Assembly (NCBI GenBank): GCA_018302605.1
Contig: JAGVZN010000010.1
Span: forward strand, 65,013 to 129,012
Direction: 5' to 3'
Source of the DNA: Candidatus Woesearchaeota archaeon
Lineage (GTDB): Archaea > Nanobdellota > Nanobdellia > Woesearchaeales > GW2011-AR9
DNA length: 64,000 bases
Shown here in pieces: positions 2,467 to 31,047 of this stretch. The notes under the pieces are model-generated. The model saw only the letters and a program-made list of their open reading frames with translations. It was not told the origin of the DNA and ran no database searches. Both the position numbers and the translations under genes were made by a program. Position 1 is the first letter of the stretch. The number at the start of each line of letters is the position of its first letter.

Positions 2467-3942
2467 ATGAATCCAGGAAATATCATCAGCCTGTTTCGCA
2501 TCGCCTGCCTGCCGGTGATGATTTATCTTCTCAACGCAGGATCGTTACAGGCTGTTTTCTGGGCTCTTGTTCTCTATGGCTTTGCTGTCTTTAGTGATGT
2601 GTTGGACGGAATCGTCGCCAAGAGGACAAAAGAGAAAAAAATAATCGGTTCGTTTATCGATCCCCTGGCGGATAAAGTACTCATTTTCGGCCTGCTTCTC
2701 TTTTTCGCTTGGGAAGGACAATTTTCGCTCACCATCTTTAGTATCCTGCTTATCCGAGATCTCTTGTCTTTAGTCTTTCGTTTTTTAGCCAGCCGCGAGG
2801 ATATTATCTTTCTTCCTCGAAAAGTATATGCAGTGGCTTTTACCAGCGGACAATTCTTTCTCGTCTTCAGCTTGCTGATGGAGAAAATGGTGGCTGCCGG
2901 ATCTCCGCGCCTGGCACAGCATCAGGCAGCACTTCATCTGCTCGTCTCGGCAGCAGCCGGTATTGTTGTCGTCCTGGCGTTCTGGTCGCTGCTGCATTCG
3001 TTCTTATTTTATGCGCGTGAAATCCGCAAAAAGAAGCATCTCTCAGCAACGGGGAAACAACAGCCTTTGCTGATCATCGCAAATCGAAGGGCACGGGGAT
3101 ATCACAACCTCTACCGCCGCCGGCTGTTGGATCTGTTTGCTCTGCGCCGGGGGGCAAGAGTCATCTTCTTCCCCCACCGGCAAAATATGTACGACGGGAT
3201 GGAACGTGAATGGGGGCAAGACCACAGAATCATTATCGCCGGGGGAGATGGTTCTTTTGAGAGCGCGTTGAATTATCCTCCACTCTTTGTCAAGACCATT
3301 GGCTTTTTTCCGTTGGGGGCGGGGAATGCATTCTATTCTTTTTTCTACAAAGGCAAGCGTTATGAATATCTGCGCTCGCGGTTTCCGTTTAAAGAGATTG
3401 ATCTTGATGTGGTCGAATTGGAATGGGCGGGTGGGAAGCGCCAGACCGTGTTTGTGAATATCGGGCTGGATGCTGATGTTATCCGTTACAGCCAGGACCG
3501 CACACAGCACGGGCTGCTTGATTACCTGCGTGGCTGCGGGCAGGCAATTCAGAAAGCGCAGAGCGGCTATGATTTCAGCGTCAAGATTGACGGGCGCAAA
3601 AAAGAATATAGCAACTGCTCGACGATGATCTTGGGTAAGATCCCTTATTTTGGCTACGGCATCCGCTCGCTAGTGGGAATGGTCAAGCCGGCGGACGGGA
3701 AAGTCTATGGTCTCGCTGTGGTTAACCGCCATTCCTCCTGGCTGAATAAGCCCTTGCGAGTCTGGTCGTTGATCGTGAGCATGTTTAATGTTGATATCCC
3801 TCCGTTGCTCTCGTTCAAAGGGAAAGAAATGCTGATTACCAGCCCAGTGCTTTTTCCGCTCCAGGCGGGGGGGGAGTTCTTAGGAGAGAGCACGTGGGTG
3901 CGGCTGCGAATTGTAAGGAAGCAGAAAGTATTGATCGTCTGA
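2467..3942 (+). CDS. fusion protein: N-terminal CDP-alcohol phosphatidyltransferase domain plus C-terminal diacylglycerol/lipid-kinase-like catalytic domain
   Basis: N-terminus has DVLDGIVAKR...GSFIDPLAD (a D-x2-DG...G-x3-D-x3-D motif) within a multi-TM region. C-terminal half has IIIAGGDGSFESALN, a GGDG kinase-type motif. Confidence 0.6.
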   Translation: MNPGNIISLFRIACLPVMIYLLNAGSLQAVFWALVLYGFAVFSDVLDGIVAKRTKEKKIIGSFIDPLADKVLIFGLLLFFAWEGQFSLTIFSILLIRDLLSLVFRFLASREDIIFLPRKVYAVAFTSGQFFLVFSLLMEKMVAAGSPRLAQHQAALHLLVSAAAGIVVVLAFWSLLHSFLFYAREIRKKKHLSATGKQQPLLIIANRRARGYHNLYRRRLLDLFALRRGARVIFFPHRQNMYDGMEREWGQDHRIIIAGGDGSFESALNYPPLFVKTIGFFPLGAGNAFYSFFYKGKRYEYLRSRFPFKEIDLDVVELEWAGGKRQTVFVNIGLDADVIRYSQDRTQHGLLDYLRGCGQAIQKAQSGYDFSVKIDGRKKEYSNCSTMILGKIPYFGYGIRSLVGMVKPADGKVYGLAVVNRHSSWLNKPLRVWSLIVSMFNVDIPPLLSFKGKEMLITSPVLFPLQAGGEFLGESTWVRLRIVRKQKVLIV

Positions 3943-4031
3943 CCATCTCTTTCTTGTACGTCTTGGCGAAACTAAATATGTACTCTTCCTCGAAAGATTT
4001 ATATAAAATATGTCAGTGTGGGTAGTTTGCG

Positions 4032-4125
4032 GCGGCTGTCGTATAACGGCTAGTATTTGGGACTGTGGAACCTTAGAGGTCGCAGCTATCCCGAGACGGG
4101 AGTTCGATTCTCCCCAGCCGCCCCA
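4032..4125 (+). tRNA. intron-containing tRNA; hand fold gives anticodon GTG (His-like, G-1 at 4031, C73 discriminator, CCA encoded)
   Basis: Acceptor gcggctg/cagccgc. D-stem gtat/gtat with GU pairs. Anticodon stem tggga/tcccg with loop ctgtgg followed by a ~19-nt insert. T-arm gggag-TTCGATT-ctccc. Confidence 0.5.
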
Positions 4126-4805
4126 TTTTCAATTTGTTGAGGTAAAATCATTATGGAAACAAGATACTTACAAGATAGATTCAGAGTTCAGGGAGGTGAA
4201 ACGCTGGTAGAGGAAGTAGAACGTATTTTGAGCTCGATAAGTCTTTCGTATGCCCTTTTCCGGTCAATCCACGTTCCTTTTGTTGATGTAACCGTCGTGA
4301 ATGGTTCTAGCTGTCACAGATCCGGAAATACCTATCTCCAACCAACAACTACTCTTATTTACGAGTACCCCGAAGGTTCGGTTGTCGGCCAATTTTTTCC
4401 AGAAAAACGCATACCCATGCGTGATGTGAATAATGTTGAAAGAGGACGTTGTGCTGGTCAGTTACTCTACCTCCATTTACCCCCACGGTTGACTGAGCTC
4501 ATTGATGATTCTCTGCCTTTGATACGAAGACAAGACCTCTGATTTGTTTGATACCCCGCCGCTTGCTGCGATTGGGATAGCCTCGGCCTAAAAAAGTTTA
4601 TTTTTCTTTTTTCTTTCAAAACATTTAAATAGAATCGGTGATTTTAAGTATCAATGATAACTCAAACCGGTAGTGATTGCCTTCATTGGCAGTACTGATT
4701 TAGCTAGTTATCAGAATATTCTTTTTGTTGAAAATTTAAGTGTAGATGGTTTGCTGTTCTCTAAACATCATCAGTAGGGCTTGTGCCCCTTAAGATTGTT
4801 TTTAT

Positions 4806-4900
4806 GGCCGCAGTAATGTCAATGGTAACATCGGAGACTGTGGTGAAGAGTTTTTCTTCTTGGAAATCTTCTGTTGCGGGTTCAATTCCCGCCTGCGGCC
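4806..4900 (+). tRNA. tRNA-His(GTG) with ~20-nt intron and genomically encoded G-1
   Basis: Acceptor gccgcag/ctgcggc, preceded by G-1 (4806) and followed by discriminator C (4900). D-arm atgt-caatggtaa-acat. Anticodon stem ggaga/tcttc with loop ctGTGgt. T-arm gcggg-TTCAATT-cccgc. Confidence 0.6.
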
Positions 4901-5072
4901 CTTTCGAATAAGTCAGCCGGACTAAAAGCGGCGGAGATTAACATGACCAAAAAAACAAAAGAAGATAGGACCAATTTAGGATTGCGAGCGGAGGCTAAGG
5001 TACAAGATAGTACTGATCGTCTTCATCGCTGAGGGCGATACCTCTTTTCAAATATTATCTACTGTAGCAAGG

Positions 5073-6404
5073 GTGAGCGGCGGAATTTACGACGGATTAC
5101 AACAGATAGTATCTCGTTGGCGAAAATTTAAAGGCCCATTCTATAGATTTAATGATCCCCTCGGCGTAAAAGAAGAAATAGCGATTGCGGAAGAATTCCT
5201 TAGTCCGTTATTACTTTGCGGGAAACCCGATTCGGTTGATATGAGGAGATGGTTTATCAAGTGTTTGAGTAACGATCAAACAGCATTTACCGGTTTCACG
5301 TCTTTGGTTGATCTTGTTGAAACTGATATGTTAGGATATGATGGCAAAATAAGATTATTGCCTTTGGCATCTTTTGTGGAACCATTTGCTGCAGAAAAAC
5401 TGGATAGTATTAATCGTGAAAAACTATTTGAAATTAAAGAAAGATTGGATACACTTGATTCCACCAGAATAGAAGAAATCAATAATCTATTGACGGAAGC
5501 AGAAGCACTTTGCCCAGTCAAAGCAGGCAGAAAGAAAGGCAAAAGTCCCATTTTCTTTTATGGTGTTTCAGATAAACCATTTCAACTGCCTAAACCGATA
5601 TATCAAAATTTAGTGGAGGCTGCAAAAGTGGCTTATAGGGCATTATATTCCACAACCGGCGAAACTTGCAGAAATATCTTCACTGGTTCTGTTGATTTCA
5701 TGCTTTGTGAAAATGGTATTTATTTGATTGATATTGGGACCCCGGCGGTTGGTTATGTTGCAGATATACTTGCTACCAGTCGGGCTTTAAGAAGAGTGCC
5801 TTCCGTTGGAATTGAAAAGATTGTTTCAACACTAGAAGGGAAAGTAACAATCCCCAAAAGTACCTATTCGAGAGAATTAGGATTCTTTAAACAAGAAAGA
5901 GAATATCTGGTCTCTGAACTAAGAAGAAGTGGTATTGTTGTTGAAGAAGTATCCGACGAGATAAATGAAGCCATAATTGATGGAAAGCCATTGCCGACGA
6001 AAGCATTTGACTATCTAAGCAGAAATCAACCTATCAGAAATCGGGTTCTTGCGGGCATTAGTGGAGACTTGTCTGCTTGTGGTGTTAAAATACCTGAGGG
6101 AATAGTATTACTACCGGATGATTTTGAATTGGCAAGATTTTATGAAAGATCTAGACTTGGTGAACAAGACTTAGGATTATTGATAAAAAAGAAAGTCTTT
6201 TTCAAAGAATATGAACATGGAAGCGGATATTTCAAGCCATTGGTAACACCAATCTGGAGTAGAGAGATTAGAGCAGACAGTAAACGAAGTAATCTTTTTG
6301 AGCAATTTGTACCGAGTTTATTAGATATTGATGTGGATGGAGATAGACCCGGAAAAAGGTGTTACGAAATCAGGATGTATTTTGTGGGAGGTGAGATCAA
6401 ATGA
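5073..6404 (+). CDS. hypothetical protein, possibly ATP-grasp-like
   Basis: 443-aa ORF with a GTG start in a lower-GC segment. The segment VDFMLCENGIYLIDIGTPAVGY resembles the C-terminal nucleotide/Mg-binding strand of ATP-grasp enzymes. No firm family assignment. Confidence 0.5.
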   Translation: MSGGIYDGLQQIVSRWRKFKGPFYRFNDPLGVKEEIAIAEEFLSPLLLCGKPDSVDMRRWFIKCLSNDQTAFTGFTSLVDLVETDMLGYDGKIRLLPLASFVEPFAAEKLDSINREKLFEIKERLDTLDSTRIEEINNLLTEAEALCPVKAGRKKGKSPIFFYGVSDKPFQLPKPIYQNLVEAAKVAYRALYSTTGETCRNIFTGSVDFMLCENGIYLIDIGTPAVGYVADILATSRALRRVPSVGIEKIVSTLEGKVTIPKSTYSRELGFFKQEREYLVSELRRSGIVVEEVSDEINEAIIDGKPLPTKAFDYLSRNQPIRNRVLAGISGDLSACGVKIPEGIVLLPDDFELARFYERSRLGEQDLGLLIKKKVFFKEYEHGSGYFKPLVTPIWSREIRADSKRSNLFEQFVPSLLDIDVDGDRPGKRCYEIRMYFVGGEIK

Positions 6405-6856
6405 TCAGGGGGATTATTTTTGATTTTAACCGTACTTTATACATTCCAGAAATTAAGAAAATACCAGAAGAGACTATCGAATTGCTCAAAAATCTAAAGA
6501 AACTTGGTTTTTCATTGGCTTTGATTAGTATCAAAGAAGCTGAACGAGAAGAGATTATAGAAGCATATAATCTATTTACTCTTTTTTCCATTTTAAAATT
6601 TGTAGACGAAAAAAATAGGGCGGTATTCCAAGAAGTATTAATGTCTCTAAAATGTTCTTCTGAAGAGGTTGTTGTAATCGGAGATCGGGTAAGGTCTGAG
6701 ATTAAAATTGCCAATGGAATGGGGATTAAAACTATTTGGTATAGACAGGGAAAATTTAGTAATGAACTCCCACAGGAGAAAGTGGAGCTTCCCAATTGGA
6801 CAATCGATTATTTACCCCAGATTAAAGATATTCTCTGCGGAGGTAGCACACAATGA
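6401..6856 (+). CDS. HAD-superfamily hydrolase-like protein
   Basis: Motif I-like IIFDFNRTL (second Asp replaced by Asn) and motif IV VVVIGDRVRSEI. Overlaps the upstream ORF by 4 nt. Confidence 0.5.
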   Translation: MIRGIIFDFNRTLYIPEIKKIPEETIELLKNLKKLGFSLALISIKEAEREEIIEAYNLFTLFSILKFVDEKNRAVFQEVLMSLKCSSEEVVVIGDRVRSEIKIANGMGIKTIWYRQGKFSNELPQEKVELPNWTIDYLPQIKDILCGGSTQ

Positions 6857-6906
6857 TAACTGAACAAACATATATAAATAAGAATAAACTAAACAGGGGA
6901 AGAACG

Positions 6907-8178
6907 ATGGAATTTCAAACAGCAAAAGGGGTGCGGGATGTGCCGCCGGAAGAGAAAATATTAAAGAACAAAGTAGTTGCCGTGATGACCAAGCAATTTG
7001 AACTTGCCGGTTTTGCGCCGTTAGAAACACCGATCCTGGAGAGGTATGAGACATTGGCTGCGAAATTTGCGGCAGGCGAGGCTTCCGATGCACTGAAAGA
7101 AATCTTTTCGCTGCAGGATCAGGGAAAAAGGAACCTGGCCCTGCGTTTTGACCTAACTGTGCCTTTATCACGTTATGTGGCGATGAACCCGACGTTAAAG
7201 ATGCCGTTCAAACGCTACGAAATCGGCCGGGTCTTTCGCGACGGACCAATCAAACTCGGACGTTATCGAGAGTTCTGGCAGTGCGACATTGACATCGTCG
7301 GCAGCAAATCGATGGTTGCCGAAGCTGAAATTCTCTCCGTGGTTGATGCAGTTTTCTCTAAATTAAACTTGCCGGTTGTGGTCAAAGTGAATAATCGCAA
7401 GATCCTGAACGGCATCCTTGAGCAGGCCGGCATTGTTCAGAAAGAAGAAGCAATCATCTCCATCGATAAGTTAGATAAGATCGGGGTAGCTGGTGTGTCT
7501 GCGGAATTGAAAGGGCGGGGGTATGCTCCAAAACAGGTTGATGCAGTCTTTGCCCTCGTCACGGAAAAAATATCCCTTTCCGAACTGAAAAAAAAGCTGA
7601 AGAGCAAAGAAGGTCAGGAAGGAATTCAGGAATTGGAAGAATTATTCTCCTATCTTACCGCTCGGGGAATAAAGTCGGGGCAATTCGATGTCTCGCTGGC
7701 CCGGGGATTGGCGTATTATACTGGAACCGTGTTTGAGGCGCGATTGAAGAGCGGTGAATTTACATCCTCTCTCGCCGGTGGAGGACGCTACGATAACATG
7801 ATCGGGAAGTTCATCGGCGGCGGCCGGGAAATCCCGGCCATGGGAATCGCTTTTGGCTTGGAGCCAATTATCGACGTTTTGAAGATGAAAGCGAAAGCAA
7901 AAGTGAAGACTCCGGCTAACGTGTTGGTATTGCCGATTAATACGGTTCGTGAATCGCTAGTGATTGCCCGTGATTTACGTGAAGCTGGAATTTCTACAGA
8001 TGTTGCGCTGCTCAAAGGCGTGACCAAGAACCTCCAATATGCTGCTGCTTTGGCGATTCCTTACGTGCTCATTGTTGGTGAGGATGAATTGAAACAGAAG
8101 AAAGTGCTCCTCCGGGATATGACCTCTGGGATGGAGCAGGTGCTTCCTCTTAAAGAAGTCATCAAGAAATTAACATGA
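6907..8178 (+). CDS. hisS: histidyl-tRNA synthetase
   Basis: MEFQTAKGVRD...RYEIGRVFRDGP...REFWQCDIDIVG class-II aaRS/HisRS motifs. Start chosen at the ATG at 6907 rather than the track's 6853. Confidence 0.9.
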   Translation: MEFQTAKGVRDVPPEEKILKNKVVAVMTKQFELAGFAPLETPILERYETLAAKFAAGEASDALKEIFSLQDQGKRNLALRFDLTVPLSRYVAMNPTLKMPFKRYEIGRVFRDGPIKLGRYREFWQCDIDIVGSKSMVAEAEILSVVDAVFSKLNLPVVVKVNNRKILNGILEQAGIVQKEEAIISIDKLDKIGVAGVSAELKGRGYAPKQVDAVFALVTEKISLSELKKKLKSKEGQEGIQELEELFSYLTARGIKSGQFDVSLARGLAYYTGTVFEARLKSGEFTSSLAGGGRYDNMIGKFIGGGREIPAMGIAFGLEPIIDVLKMKAKAKVKTPANVLVLPINTVRESLVIARDLREAGISTDVALLKGVTKNLQYAAALAIPYVLIVGEDELKQKKVLLRDMTSGMEQVLPLKEVIKKLT

Positions 8179-29655: not shown

Positions 29656-31047
29656 ATGTCGCTTACGCTATACAATACCCTCACCCGCAGGAAAGAGCTG
29701 TTTGTTCCGCTGAAGAAAAGCCAGGTTGGCCTGTACACTTGCGGTCCGACGGTGTATAATTATGTCCATATTGGCAACTTACGGGCCTATCTCTTTGATG
29801 ACACGCTCAAACGCACACTTCTCTTCAATAAATATCCCGTTAAGCATGTGATGAACATCACTGATGTTGGTCACTTGACTTCCGATCAGGACGAAGGTGA
29901 AGACAAGATGCGCAAAGGGGCTCTGCGGGAAAAGAAGACGGTGTGGGAAATTGCTGAATTTTACACCGAAGCCTTTTTGGAAAATATGAAAAAATTAAAC
30001 ATTCTTTCTCCTGACATCTTCTGTAAAGCGACCGATCACATCACAGAACAGATAGCCTTAATCCAAAAGCTGGAACAGAAAGGCTTTACTTATTTCCGGG
30101 GGGGCAATGTTTATTTTGACACTTCTCAATTAGATGATTATGGCAAACTGGCCAAATTAGATCTCCGCGCAGAAACACGGGGGCGTGTACGAAAGGATTC
30201 CAACAAAAAGAATCCCCACGATTTTGTCCTCTGGTTTACCAAATCAAAATTTCAGGAACAGGAGATGAAGTGGCCTTCTCCCTGGGGAGTCGGTTATCCC
30301 GGCTGGCATATTGAATGTTCTGCGATGTCAATCAAATATCTGGGAAAACAGTTTGATATCCATTGCGGCGGGATTGACCACATTCCGGTTCATCACAGCA
30401 ACGAGATTGCCCAATCGGAAGCGGCTCTTGGCAAAAAACCCTGGGTTAAATATTGGCTGCATAATGAGTTTCTGGTCCTTGGGCAGGGCGAGAAAATGGC
30501 TAAGTCTGGCGAGAATTTCATTACTTTTGCTACATTAGAAGAGAAAGGTTATCATCCCCTGGATTTCCGTTATTTTTGTCTGGGTACACACTATCGCCAC
30601 CCGTTGATGTTCAGCTACGAAGCATTAGATGGGGCCAAAACTGCACGGAAAAGATTGAATGAGAAAGTTATCGAGCTTAAAAAAGTGAAAAGCACGGCAT
30701 CTGCTGTTCGGCAAAAGAAATATCTGGACCAATTCACTGCGCAAGTCAATGATGATCTGAATACTCCCCAAGCTCTCGCTACAATGTGGGATATGTTAAA
30801 AGACGGCGTGCTTTCGGCAAAAGATAAACTGGGTCTTCTCTTGAAATTCGATGCCATTTTCGGTTTGGATCTAAAGACAGCCGAAGAAGAGAAAATTCCT
30901 CCGCAAGTTCTTCGCTTGGCTCTAGAACGTTTACAAGCTCGTCAGAAGAAAGACTGGAAGAAATCTGATGAATTACGGGGAAAGATAAATCAGCTCGGGT
31001 ATACTATTGGTGATACTAAGGACGGGTTTGAATTGAAGAAAGAGTGA
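29656..31047 (+). CDS. cysS: cysteinyl-tRNA synthetase
   Basis: CGPTVYNYVHIGN (HIGH-type) and KMAKSGENF (KMSKS-type) motifs. Confidence 0.9.
   Translation: MSLTLYNTLTRRKELFVPLKKSQVGLYTCGPTVYNYVHIGNLRAYLFDDTLKRTLLFNKYPVKHVMNITDVGHLTSDQDEGEDKMRKGALREKKTVWEIAEFYTEAFLENMKKLNILSPDIFCKATDHITEQIALIQKLEQKGFTYFRGGNVYFDTSQLDDYGKLAKLDLRAETRGRVRKDSNKKNPHDFVLWFTKSKFQEQEMKWPSPWGVGYPGWHIECSAMSIKYLGKQFDIHCGGIDHIPVHHSNEIAQSEAALGKKPWVKYWLHNEFLVLGQGEKMAKSGENFITFATLEEKGYHPLDFRYFCLGTHYRHPLMFSYEALDGAKTARKRLNEKVIELKKVKSTASAVRQKKYLDQFTAQVNDDLNTPQALATMWDMLKDGVLSAKDKLGLLLKFDAIFGLDLKTAEEEKIPPQVLRLALERLQARQKKDWKKSDELRGKINQLGYTIGDTKDGFELKKE

Follow-up and report, generated by a model that had tools for sequence, protein, structure and literature searches.

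Organization of the locus

The window (the whole stretch of DNA analysed, 64 kb) belongs to a Woesearchaeon, a DPANN archaeon. It contains two different, real tRNA-His(GUG) genes, far beyond chance, which lie upstream of and on the same strand as hisS, with the histidyl-tRNA synthetase (HisRS) gene 2 kb downstream (Table 1). Between the two tRNA genes lies the lineage-specific ORF129, for which no Pfam or NCBIfam family and no homologue in 80 HisRS loci was found; every contig of the same population carries it, and other tandem pairs have a different gene, or none, at its position. Behind the second tRNA gene follow ORF443 (GC content 0.38; no match in Pfam, NCBIfam or PDB sequences) and a HAD hydrolase gene (GC content 0.34), whose stop codon is overlapped by the start of hisS. 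Among about 30 ORFs of the 64-kb window scanned against Pfam, neither EndA nor RtcB was detected.

Of 80 related loci, about 43 have a same-strand tRNA-His gene upstream of the HisRS gene, often abutting the start codon. The gene order thermosome, CDP-OH transferase, tRNA-His, further genes, HisRS and M24 peptidase is kept in L003, L002, L004 and L171 (labels of this form denote related loci). No earlier description of the tRNA-His/hisS linkage was found in the literature searched.

Table 1. Features of the tRNA-His/hisS locus, with positions in the window
Feature	Position	Strand	Basis
BRE/TATA-like promoter of copy 1, CGAAAG-ATTTATATA	3991..4005	+	Read from sequence
tRNA-His(GUG) copy 1	4031..4125	+	ARAGORN with introns; Rfam tRNA model; tRNA-His covariance model
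Copy 1 intron, 19 nt, position 37/38, relaxed BHB	4069..4087	+	ARAGORN; minimum-free-energy fold
ORF129, lineage-specific, between the tRNA genes	4153..4542	+	No known family
BRE/TATA box AACATTTAAATA of the putative leader transcript with copy 2	4620..4631	+	Conserved in L001, L002 and L004
Mini-ORF A, predicted leaderless, 14 codons, MITQTGSDCLHWQY then stop; His codon 4684-4686	4654..4698	+	Conserved family
Predicted RNA structure around mini-ORF A: helix 4655-4662/4706-4713 and inner hairpin with CAU in the loop	4655..4713	+	Folding
CAUCAUC, then UAG, GGGC-UUGU-GCCC hairpin (4777-4788) and T-run (4799-4803)	4766..4805	+	Conservation
tRNA-His(GUG) copy 2	4806..4900	+	ARAGORN; tRNA-His covariance model
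Copy 2 intron, 22 nt, position 37/38, canonical hBHBh' register	4844..4865	+	Strict BHB scan
Mini-ORF B, MTKKTKEDRTNLGLRAEAKVQDSTDRLHR then stop; His codon 5024-5026; GGAG at 4933-4936	4943..5032	+	29-aa gene in public contigs
Low-GC variable cargo: ORF443 and HAD hydrolase gene (6401-6856)	5073..6856	+	Pfam, NCBIfam and PDB searches
hisS (histidyl-tRNA synthetase)	6853..8178	+	PF13393, 2.3e-44; TIGR00442, 350.8 bits (cutoff 286.75)

Identity of the two tRNA-His genes

With introns allowed, ARAGORN called tRNA-His(gtg) at 4032-4125 and 4807-4901; no tRNA call was obtained without the intron option, and the 114 spurious calls at a lowered threshold were useless. After the introns had been cut by hand, both genes were called as canonical 73-75-nt tRNA-His by ARAGORN at default settings. 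A tRNA-His covariance model was trained on 28 Woesearchaeal sequences, with the window and L001 left out. In the whole window it matched only 4031-4122 (72.7 bits, E~1e-18) and 4806-4900 (64.4 bits, E~3e-16), both at full length, without non-standard pairs and with the insertion placed in the anticodon loop.

Both genes form the cloverleaf with a 7-bp acceptor stem, D, anticodon and T arms and the T loop UUCRAnn, and the spliced anticodon loop of both is CUGUGGA, 7 nt, with GUG at 34-36. Copy 1 has G-1 at 4031, the acceptor stem GCGGCTG/CAGCCGC, the anticodon GTG at 4065-4067 and C73 at 4122, with CCA encoded directly behind it (4123-4125); it scored 45.2 bits with the Rfam tRNA model, whose gathering score is 29. 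Copy 2 has G-1 at 4806, the acceptor stem GCCGCAG/CTGCGGC, the anticodon GTG at 4840-4842 and C73 at 4900, without an encoded CCA; its D loop starts with an additional C and has a C where A14 is expected. G-1 is reported to be genomically encoded in tRNA-His of most Bacteria and Archaea (PMC3061083). Both genes of the window carry the same G-1:C73 pair, the identity pair for HisRS, here in two diverged genes in tandem, the mature sequences of which are 65% identical.

The preliminary description had proposed two distinct tRNA-His genes with the G-1/C73 pair and an intron at 37/38, which was confirmed by ARAGORN, the use of which had been suggested, and by the covariance model; its view that a second copy needs explaining was also supported. 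It had left room for one copy being mis-folded, that is, another isoacceptor or a pseudogene. For this, one may cite that the Rfam tRNA model stayed below threshold on copy 2 and that ARAGORN drew this copy oddly, with a 10-nt intron and a 16-nt or long variable arm; the drawing was dropped, and the 22-nt BHB intron preferred, on the basis of the BHB scan and the covariance model. However, ARAGORN, the covariance model and the BHB register agree on GUG in both genes, and spliced copy 2 gives the canonical call, scores without mispairs and has a canonical BHB register. Its orthologue in L001 is 96% identical, and all four exon substitutions keep or restore pairing. An alignment of 10 orthologues and paralogues shows 99.5% pairing in the cloverleaf, with both partners changed in 13 of 22 pairs and G-1:C73 the same throughout. 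Mis-folding has therefore a negligible chance of being right and is already refuted as far as sequence analysis reaches. Both genes are, by these criteria, predicted to be functional paralogous tRNA-His(GUG) genes of the Woesearchaeon. The ARAGORN 'tRNA-Ala' calls in L002 and L004 were likewise recognized as tRNA-His genes with a 15-nt intron.

Introns

The two introns occupy position 37/38, the canonical site of archaeal BHB tRNA introns, which are cut by EndA. Copy 2 also shares with these the two 3-nt bulges around a helix of four positions, with flanks of 5 and 6 bp, in the order h (5 bp), bulge GGU, H (CUGU/UUGG, three of four pairs), bulge AAA and h' (6 bp). In contrast to the canonical motif, copy 2 has a weak central helix (C-G, U.G, G.U and U.U) and copy 1 a relaxed 5' half. 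In the minimum-free-energy fold of copy 1, the 3' bulge CUA is canonical and the CUGU/GCAG helix is formed, with the 5' splice site in a 2-nt bulge or in a 3x1 internal loop. The insertions had been estimated beforehand at about 19-20 nt, which holds for copy 1 and not for copy 2, where the BHB scan gave the longer intron; the BHB check proposed at the same time succeeded in strict register for copy 2, and the copy 1 intron was not found by the strict scan.

In the copy 2 intron of L001, U18>C turns G34.U of the central helix into G34-C, and A3>G keeps the h' pair. Introns of 15-84 nt occur at the same site in the orthologues, additional introns occur in the D loop and T arm of L002, L004, L006, L018 and L074, and the copy 2 orthologues of L002 and L004 carry two or three introns each. 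In L002, L004 and L006, the introns of the D loop and T arm were missed by the strict BHB scan. Broad-specificity tRNA splicing endonucleases of the (alpha-beta)2 and epsilon2 types have been reported (PMC5829648); in view of the relaxed motifs and the extra introns, an enzyme of such a type would be needed.

Conservation of the tandem pair and the question of integration

L002, L004, L127 and L171, whose HisRS are only 61-67% identical to that of the window, have this tandem pair as well, with orthologous copies and a shared leader; tandem pairs also occur, independently, in L036, L038, L047 and L049. Syntenic orthologues of copy 1 (78-84% identity) are located behind the CDP-alcohol phosphatidyltransferase gene in L003, L171, L002 and L004, and orthologues of copy 2 with the same acceptor stem and T arm are found in L001, L002, L004, L127 and L171. 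Identities range from 66 to 86% within the copy-1 group and from 54 to 70% within the copy-2 group. Copy 1, directly after the CDP-alcohol phosphatidyltransferase gene, is by this comparison the slowly evolving member, and copy 2, tied to the hisS operon, is the faster one. All copy 2 orthologues strictly keep GUG as anticodon, G-1:C73, the T loop and the four helices. The L171 orthologue is atypical in having A37 and C1-G72, and the discriminator is U73 or A73 in some related lineages (L049, L052, L063 and L076). Exact-pattern scans for copy 2 in metagenome and viral collections gave no match.

It had been suggested that one copy arrived with the lower-GC segment, a tRNA gene being the integration target. 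Several observations would suit the import of copy 2 (or copy 1) by an integrating element or low-GC segment with a resident tRNA-His gene as the site: the GC content at 5-7 kb is down to 0.34-0.39, L001, which is 87-90% identical, carries other cargo than the window between copy 2 and hisS, two contigs of the population stop at 4905, right behind copy 2, and copy 2 is closest, outside its own clade, to tRNA-His of distant Woesearchaeota such as L019 (81%). Against it, a short-word BLAST of both tRNAs versus the window gave no att-type direct repeat, nothing tRNA-derived being longer than 14 nt (chance level), and Pfam and NCBIfam searches of 4.1-8.2 kb gave no integrase, recombinase or phage-like domain. 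No empty site was found among the four relatives that hold the pair. In L001, ORF443 and the HAD gene are replaced by a HisG-like gene and a racemase gene, and copy 2 is retained; ORF443 and the HAD gene adjoin hisS on its upstream side in the distant locus L006 as well. The cargo has thus been exchanged with copy 2 left in place, so the low-GC stretch is variable operon cargo and not a vehicle. With no att-like repeat, no integrase and the pair kept in relatives, the suggestion was abandoned, and import by a mobile element is regarded as very improbable. The break of homology to L001 at window position 4610 was rejected as the boundary of a mobile module, as it is explained by a MITE-like repeat located where the L001 contig ends. 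The tandem pair is, judged from these comparisons, a pair of old paralogues that was vertically inherited.

Promoters and mini-ORFs

The TATA box of copy 1 ends 25 nt before G-1, and a TATA-like box 24-29 nt before G-1 was present at the first copy in all nine tandem pairs; this spacing would place the transcript start at, or a few nucleotides from, G-1. No TATA box at 24-29 nt before G-1 was read from the sequence at copy 2 of the window. The leader TATA box ends 22 nt before the ATG of mini-ORF A; over 27 loci the distance is 21-33 nt, mostly 22-25 nt.

Mini-ORF A belongs to a family of 9-24 codons ending in [D/G]-[C/L]-x-His. Of 47 archaeal tRNA-His genes, 25 have the motif in the 300 nt before them, versus 103 of 20000 random windows (0.5%), an enrichment of about 100-fold; about half of the tRNA-His genes lack it. 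It is located between the two tRNA copies in nine of nine tandem pairs, and a metagenome search with the motif as the only query recovered loci with a downstream tRNA-His, HisG-like or HisRS gene (L095 without a tRNA gene). Most matches of a metagenome scan with the 17-nt core of the mini-ORF were unrelated ferredoxin-like 'CPVDCIH' genes, and matches outside a true mini-ORF context were discarded. All nucleotide-level matches have CAT or CAC as the His codon, the Cys codon varies between TGT and TGC, and most mini-ORFs have a single His codon. In several loci (e.g. L041, L035 and L003) a second TATA-like box stands between the mini-ORF and the tRNA gene, and the two may be on separate transcripts there. 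L003, in which a copy-1-like sequence follows a mini-ORF, is a candidate case of gene conversion. No earlier description of a His-codon mini-ORF family was found in the literature searched, and upstream of the CysRS gene of the window (29656-31047) no analogous Cys mini-ORF was seen.

The fold z-score of the part enclosing mini-ORF A is -3.37, and that of the leader overall, -1.1 to -1.7, is not exceptional. Compensatory changes are seen in this structure (AUAAC/GUUAU to GCAAC/GUUGC; UGCC...GGCA to UGUA...GUUA). The segment with CAUCAUC, hairpin and T-run directly precedes copy 2 and is kept in the window, L001, L002, L004, L127 and L171; its hairpin is predicted in every fold and is absent from other clades. 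A translated 'His-His' mini-ORF at CAUCAUC was not accepted since its start codon is not conserved, and CAUCAUC may be one strand of a GAUG/CAUC helix. The stretch 4654-4698 is not regarded as a C/D-box sRNA, since neither L004 nor L002 keeps the D box. No competing terminator/antiterminator pairing was identified in the leader folds. Homologues of mini-ORF B occur downstream of tRNA-His in L004, L013, L022 and L171, and positions 1241-1279 of L004 match its stretch at 87% identity.

An untranslated role of mini-ORF A was weighed, either as a T-box-like hairpin offering CAU to tRNA-His or as an initial transcribed sequence tied to the promoter. Conservation of the nucleotides is very high (GTTGATTGTATTCATTG), third codon positions included, and in the GC-richer variants the His codon is put into a hairpin loop with compensatory stem changes (UGCC-UUCAUU-GGCA in the window, UGCCG-UCAU-CGGCA in L050, and L064), the loop UUCAU being pairable, as read from the sequence, with G34-A38 of tRNA-His. 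Yet the T-ending codons are explained by the AT-rich genomes, the hairpin is negligible in the AT-rich members, and G37 of tRNA-His is normally m1G, by which an extended pairing of codon and anticodon loop would be blocked. An in-frame start, usually ATG, is found at 9-54 nt in 16 of 17 nucleotide-level matches (L014 left out), no internal stop occurs, the stop follows 0-4 codons past the residue after His, the ATG is at the expected transcription start, and the TGT/TGC and CAT/CAC changes are synonymous. Rfam searches of 3900-5100 (E<=10) gave neither a T-box nor any other family beyond tRNA/tmRNA-like T arms. A purely RNA-borne function is consequently held to be unlikely, and a translated leader peptide is preferred for the mini-ORF.

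A model for the expression of the two genes

Transcription starts, co-transcription, mini-ORF translation and splicing are taken here from the sequence by inference. On this basis, the pair is probably an old paralogue pair in a tRNA-His/hisS operon with one constitutive and one leader-controlled tRNA-His. Copy 1, with its own TATA box and a start at or a few nucleotides before G-1, would provide a constitutive supply. Copy 2, without a promoter of its own, would be transcribed from the TATA box about 185 nt upstream within a longer RNA, which would comprise the leaderless mini-ORF with its conserved His codon, the structured spacer (CAUCAUC, GC hairpin and U-run), copy 2, the second His-codon mini-ORF, the variable cargo genes and hisS. 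With a leader of about 150 nt, copy 2 would need a 5' endonuclease, and its release would involve RNase P and RNase Z cuts, splicing by tRNA endonuclease and ligase, and CCA addition. The mini-ORFs would most likely encode leader peptides, such that ribosome dwell at the His codon reports the supply of His-tRNA-His and tunes the read-through or processing of the tRNA-His/hisS transcript. The two genes would then have been kept because they are expressed differently and not because they decode differently.

Copy 2 could instead be primarily a tRNA-like module by which the hisS transcript is processed or regulated, and not a substrate of translation; it would then be either an RNase P/Z punctuation site or a HisRS-binding autoregulatory operator as in E. 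coli thrS. Its predicted place inside a long transcript, its direct abutment to hisS in many relatives, its faster evolution and gain of introns, the atypical C of the D loop and the aberrant L171 orthologue are compatible with such a role, and given the unusual D loop and the fast evolution, the function of copy 2 may be relaxed in part. But a cleavage signal alone needs none of what is strictly kept in this gene, namely GUG, G-1:C73, the T loop and all helices, and the leader-linked gene is presumably the sole tRNA-His gene in genomes with a single copy near hisS. The module function is therefore considered quite improbable, and copy 2 is more probably a leader-controlled tRNA-His gene.

More tentatively, it is possible that a His-responsive leader-peptide system, not described so far, operates in Woesearchaeota and would represent the first attenuator-like, ribosome-mediated control in Archaea. 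In such a system, a transcript of tRNA-His, hisS and sometimes a HisG-like gene would be gated by a leaderless mini-ORF with the ending [D/G]-C-[I/L]-His-x-stop, through which the supply of His-tRNA-His would be gauged. In two-gene lineages the job would be split, one copy being promoter-proximal and constitutive and the other gated by the leader. If the leader-peptide model is true, regulation would need both the start codon and the His codon (changes CAT>GCT and CAT>CATCATCAT); if the RNA-element model is true, it would be independent of the start codon.

Comparison with known systems

Nanoarchaeum equitans transcribes its tRNAs leaderless and makes tRNA-His as ppp-G-1 in the absence of RNase P (PMC10100707). 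The spacing of 24-29 nt at copy 1-type genes would fit the same mode, unlike copy 2 with its predicted leader. If both start assignments are true, each cell would make a tRNA-His of the ppp- or short-leader kind alongside a processed one.

Leader-peptide attenuators of bacteria include hisL of the his operon and pheM, the leader of pheST. The archaeal mini-ORFs are similar in being very short 5' ORFs with a codon for the amino acid handled downstream, here by tRNA-His, HisRS and the HisG-like gene products. They differ in that bacterial leaders have runs of regulatory codons, whereas the mini-ORFs usually have a single His codon near the stop, in the conserved context [D/G]-[C/L]-x-H, which would be a weak sensor by comparison with the bacterial his leaders; moreover, the system is archaeal and a tRNA gene is embedded within the transcript presumed to be regulated. 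In mycobacteria, attenuators with leaderless poly-Cys sORFs have been described (bioRxiv 10.1101/834739), and mini-ORF A is likewise predicted to be leaderless and, in the window clade, is followed by a hairpin and U-run. No example of archaeal leader-peptide attenuation was found in the literature searched.

T-box riboswitches sit upstream of hisS in Firmicutes, and we know of none from archaea. The element of the window is also a cis element upstream of hisS in which a His codon could face the tRNA-His anticodon; unlike a T-box, it comprises only about 60 nt, has an ORF at the predicted transcription start and contains no T-box sequence.

Implications

By themselves, the two tRNA-His genes are ordinary tRNAs, and their main value is a warning for annotation: since these genes and their relatives with several introns were missed or mis-typed by standard tools, tRNA complements of DPANN archaea are likely to be under-counted. 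More weight attaches to the context, that is, to the widespread linkage of tRNA-His and hisS, to the conserved tandem pair with different promoter architectures, and to the conserved, putatively leaderless His-codon mini-ORF that is specifically tied to tRNA-His, hisS and HisG-like genes. To our knowledge, the control of aminoacyl-tRNA synthetases and tRNA supply in archaea, and in DPANN especially, is essentially uncharted, and the locus provides a concrete, sequence-defined and testable candidate for archaeal leader control.

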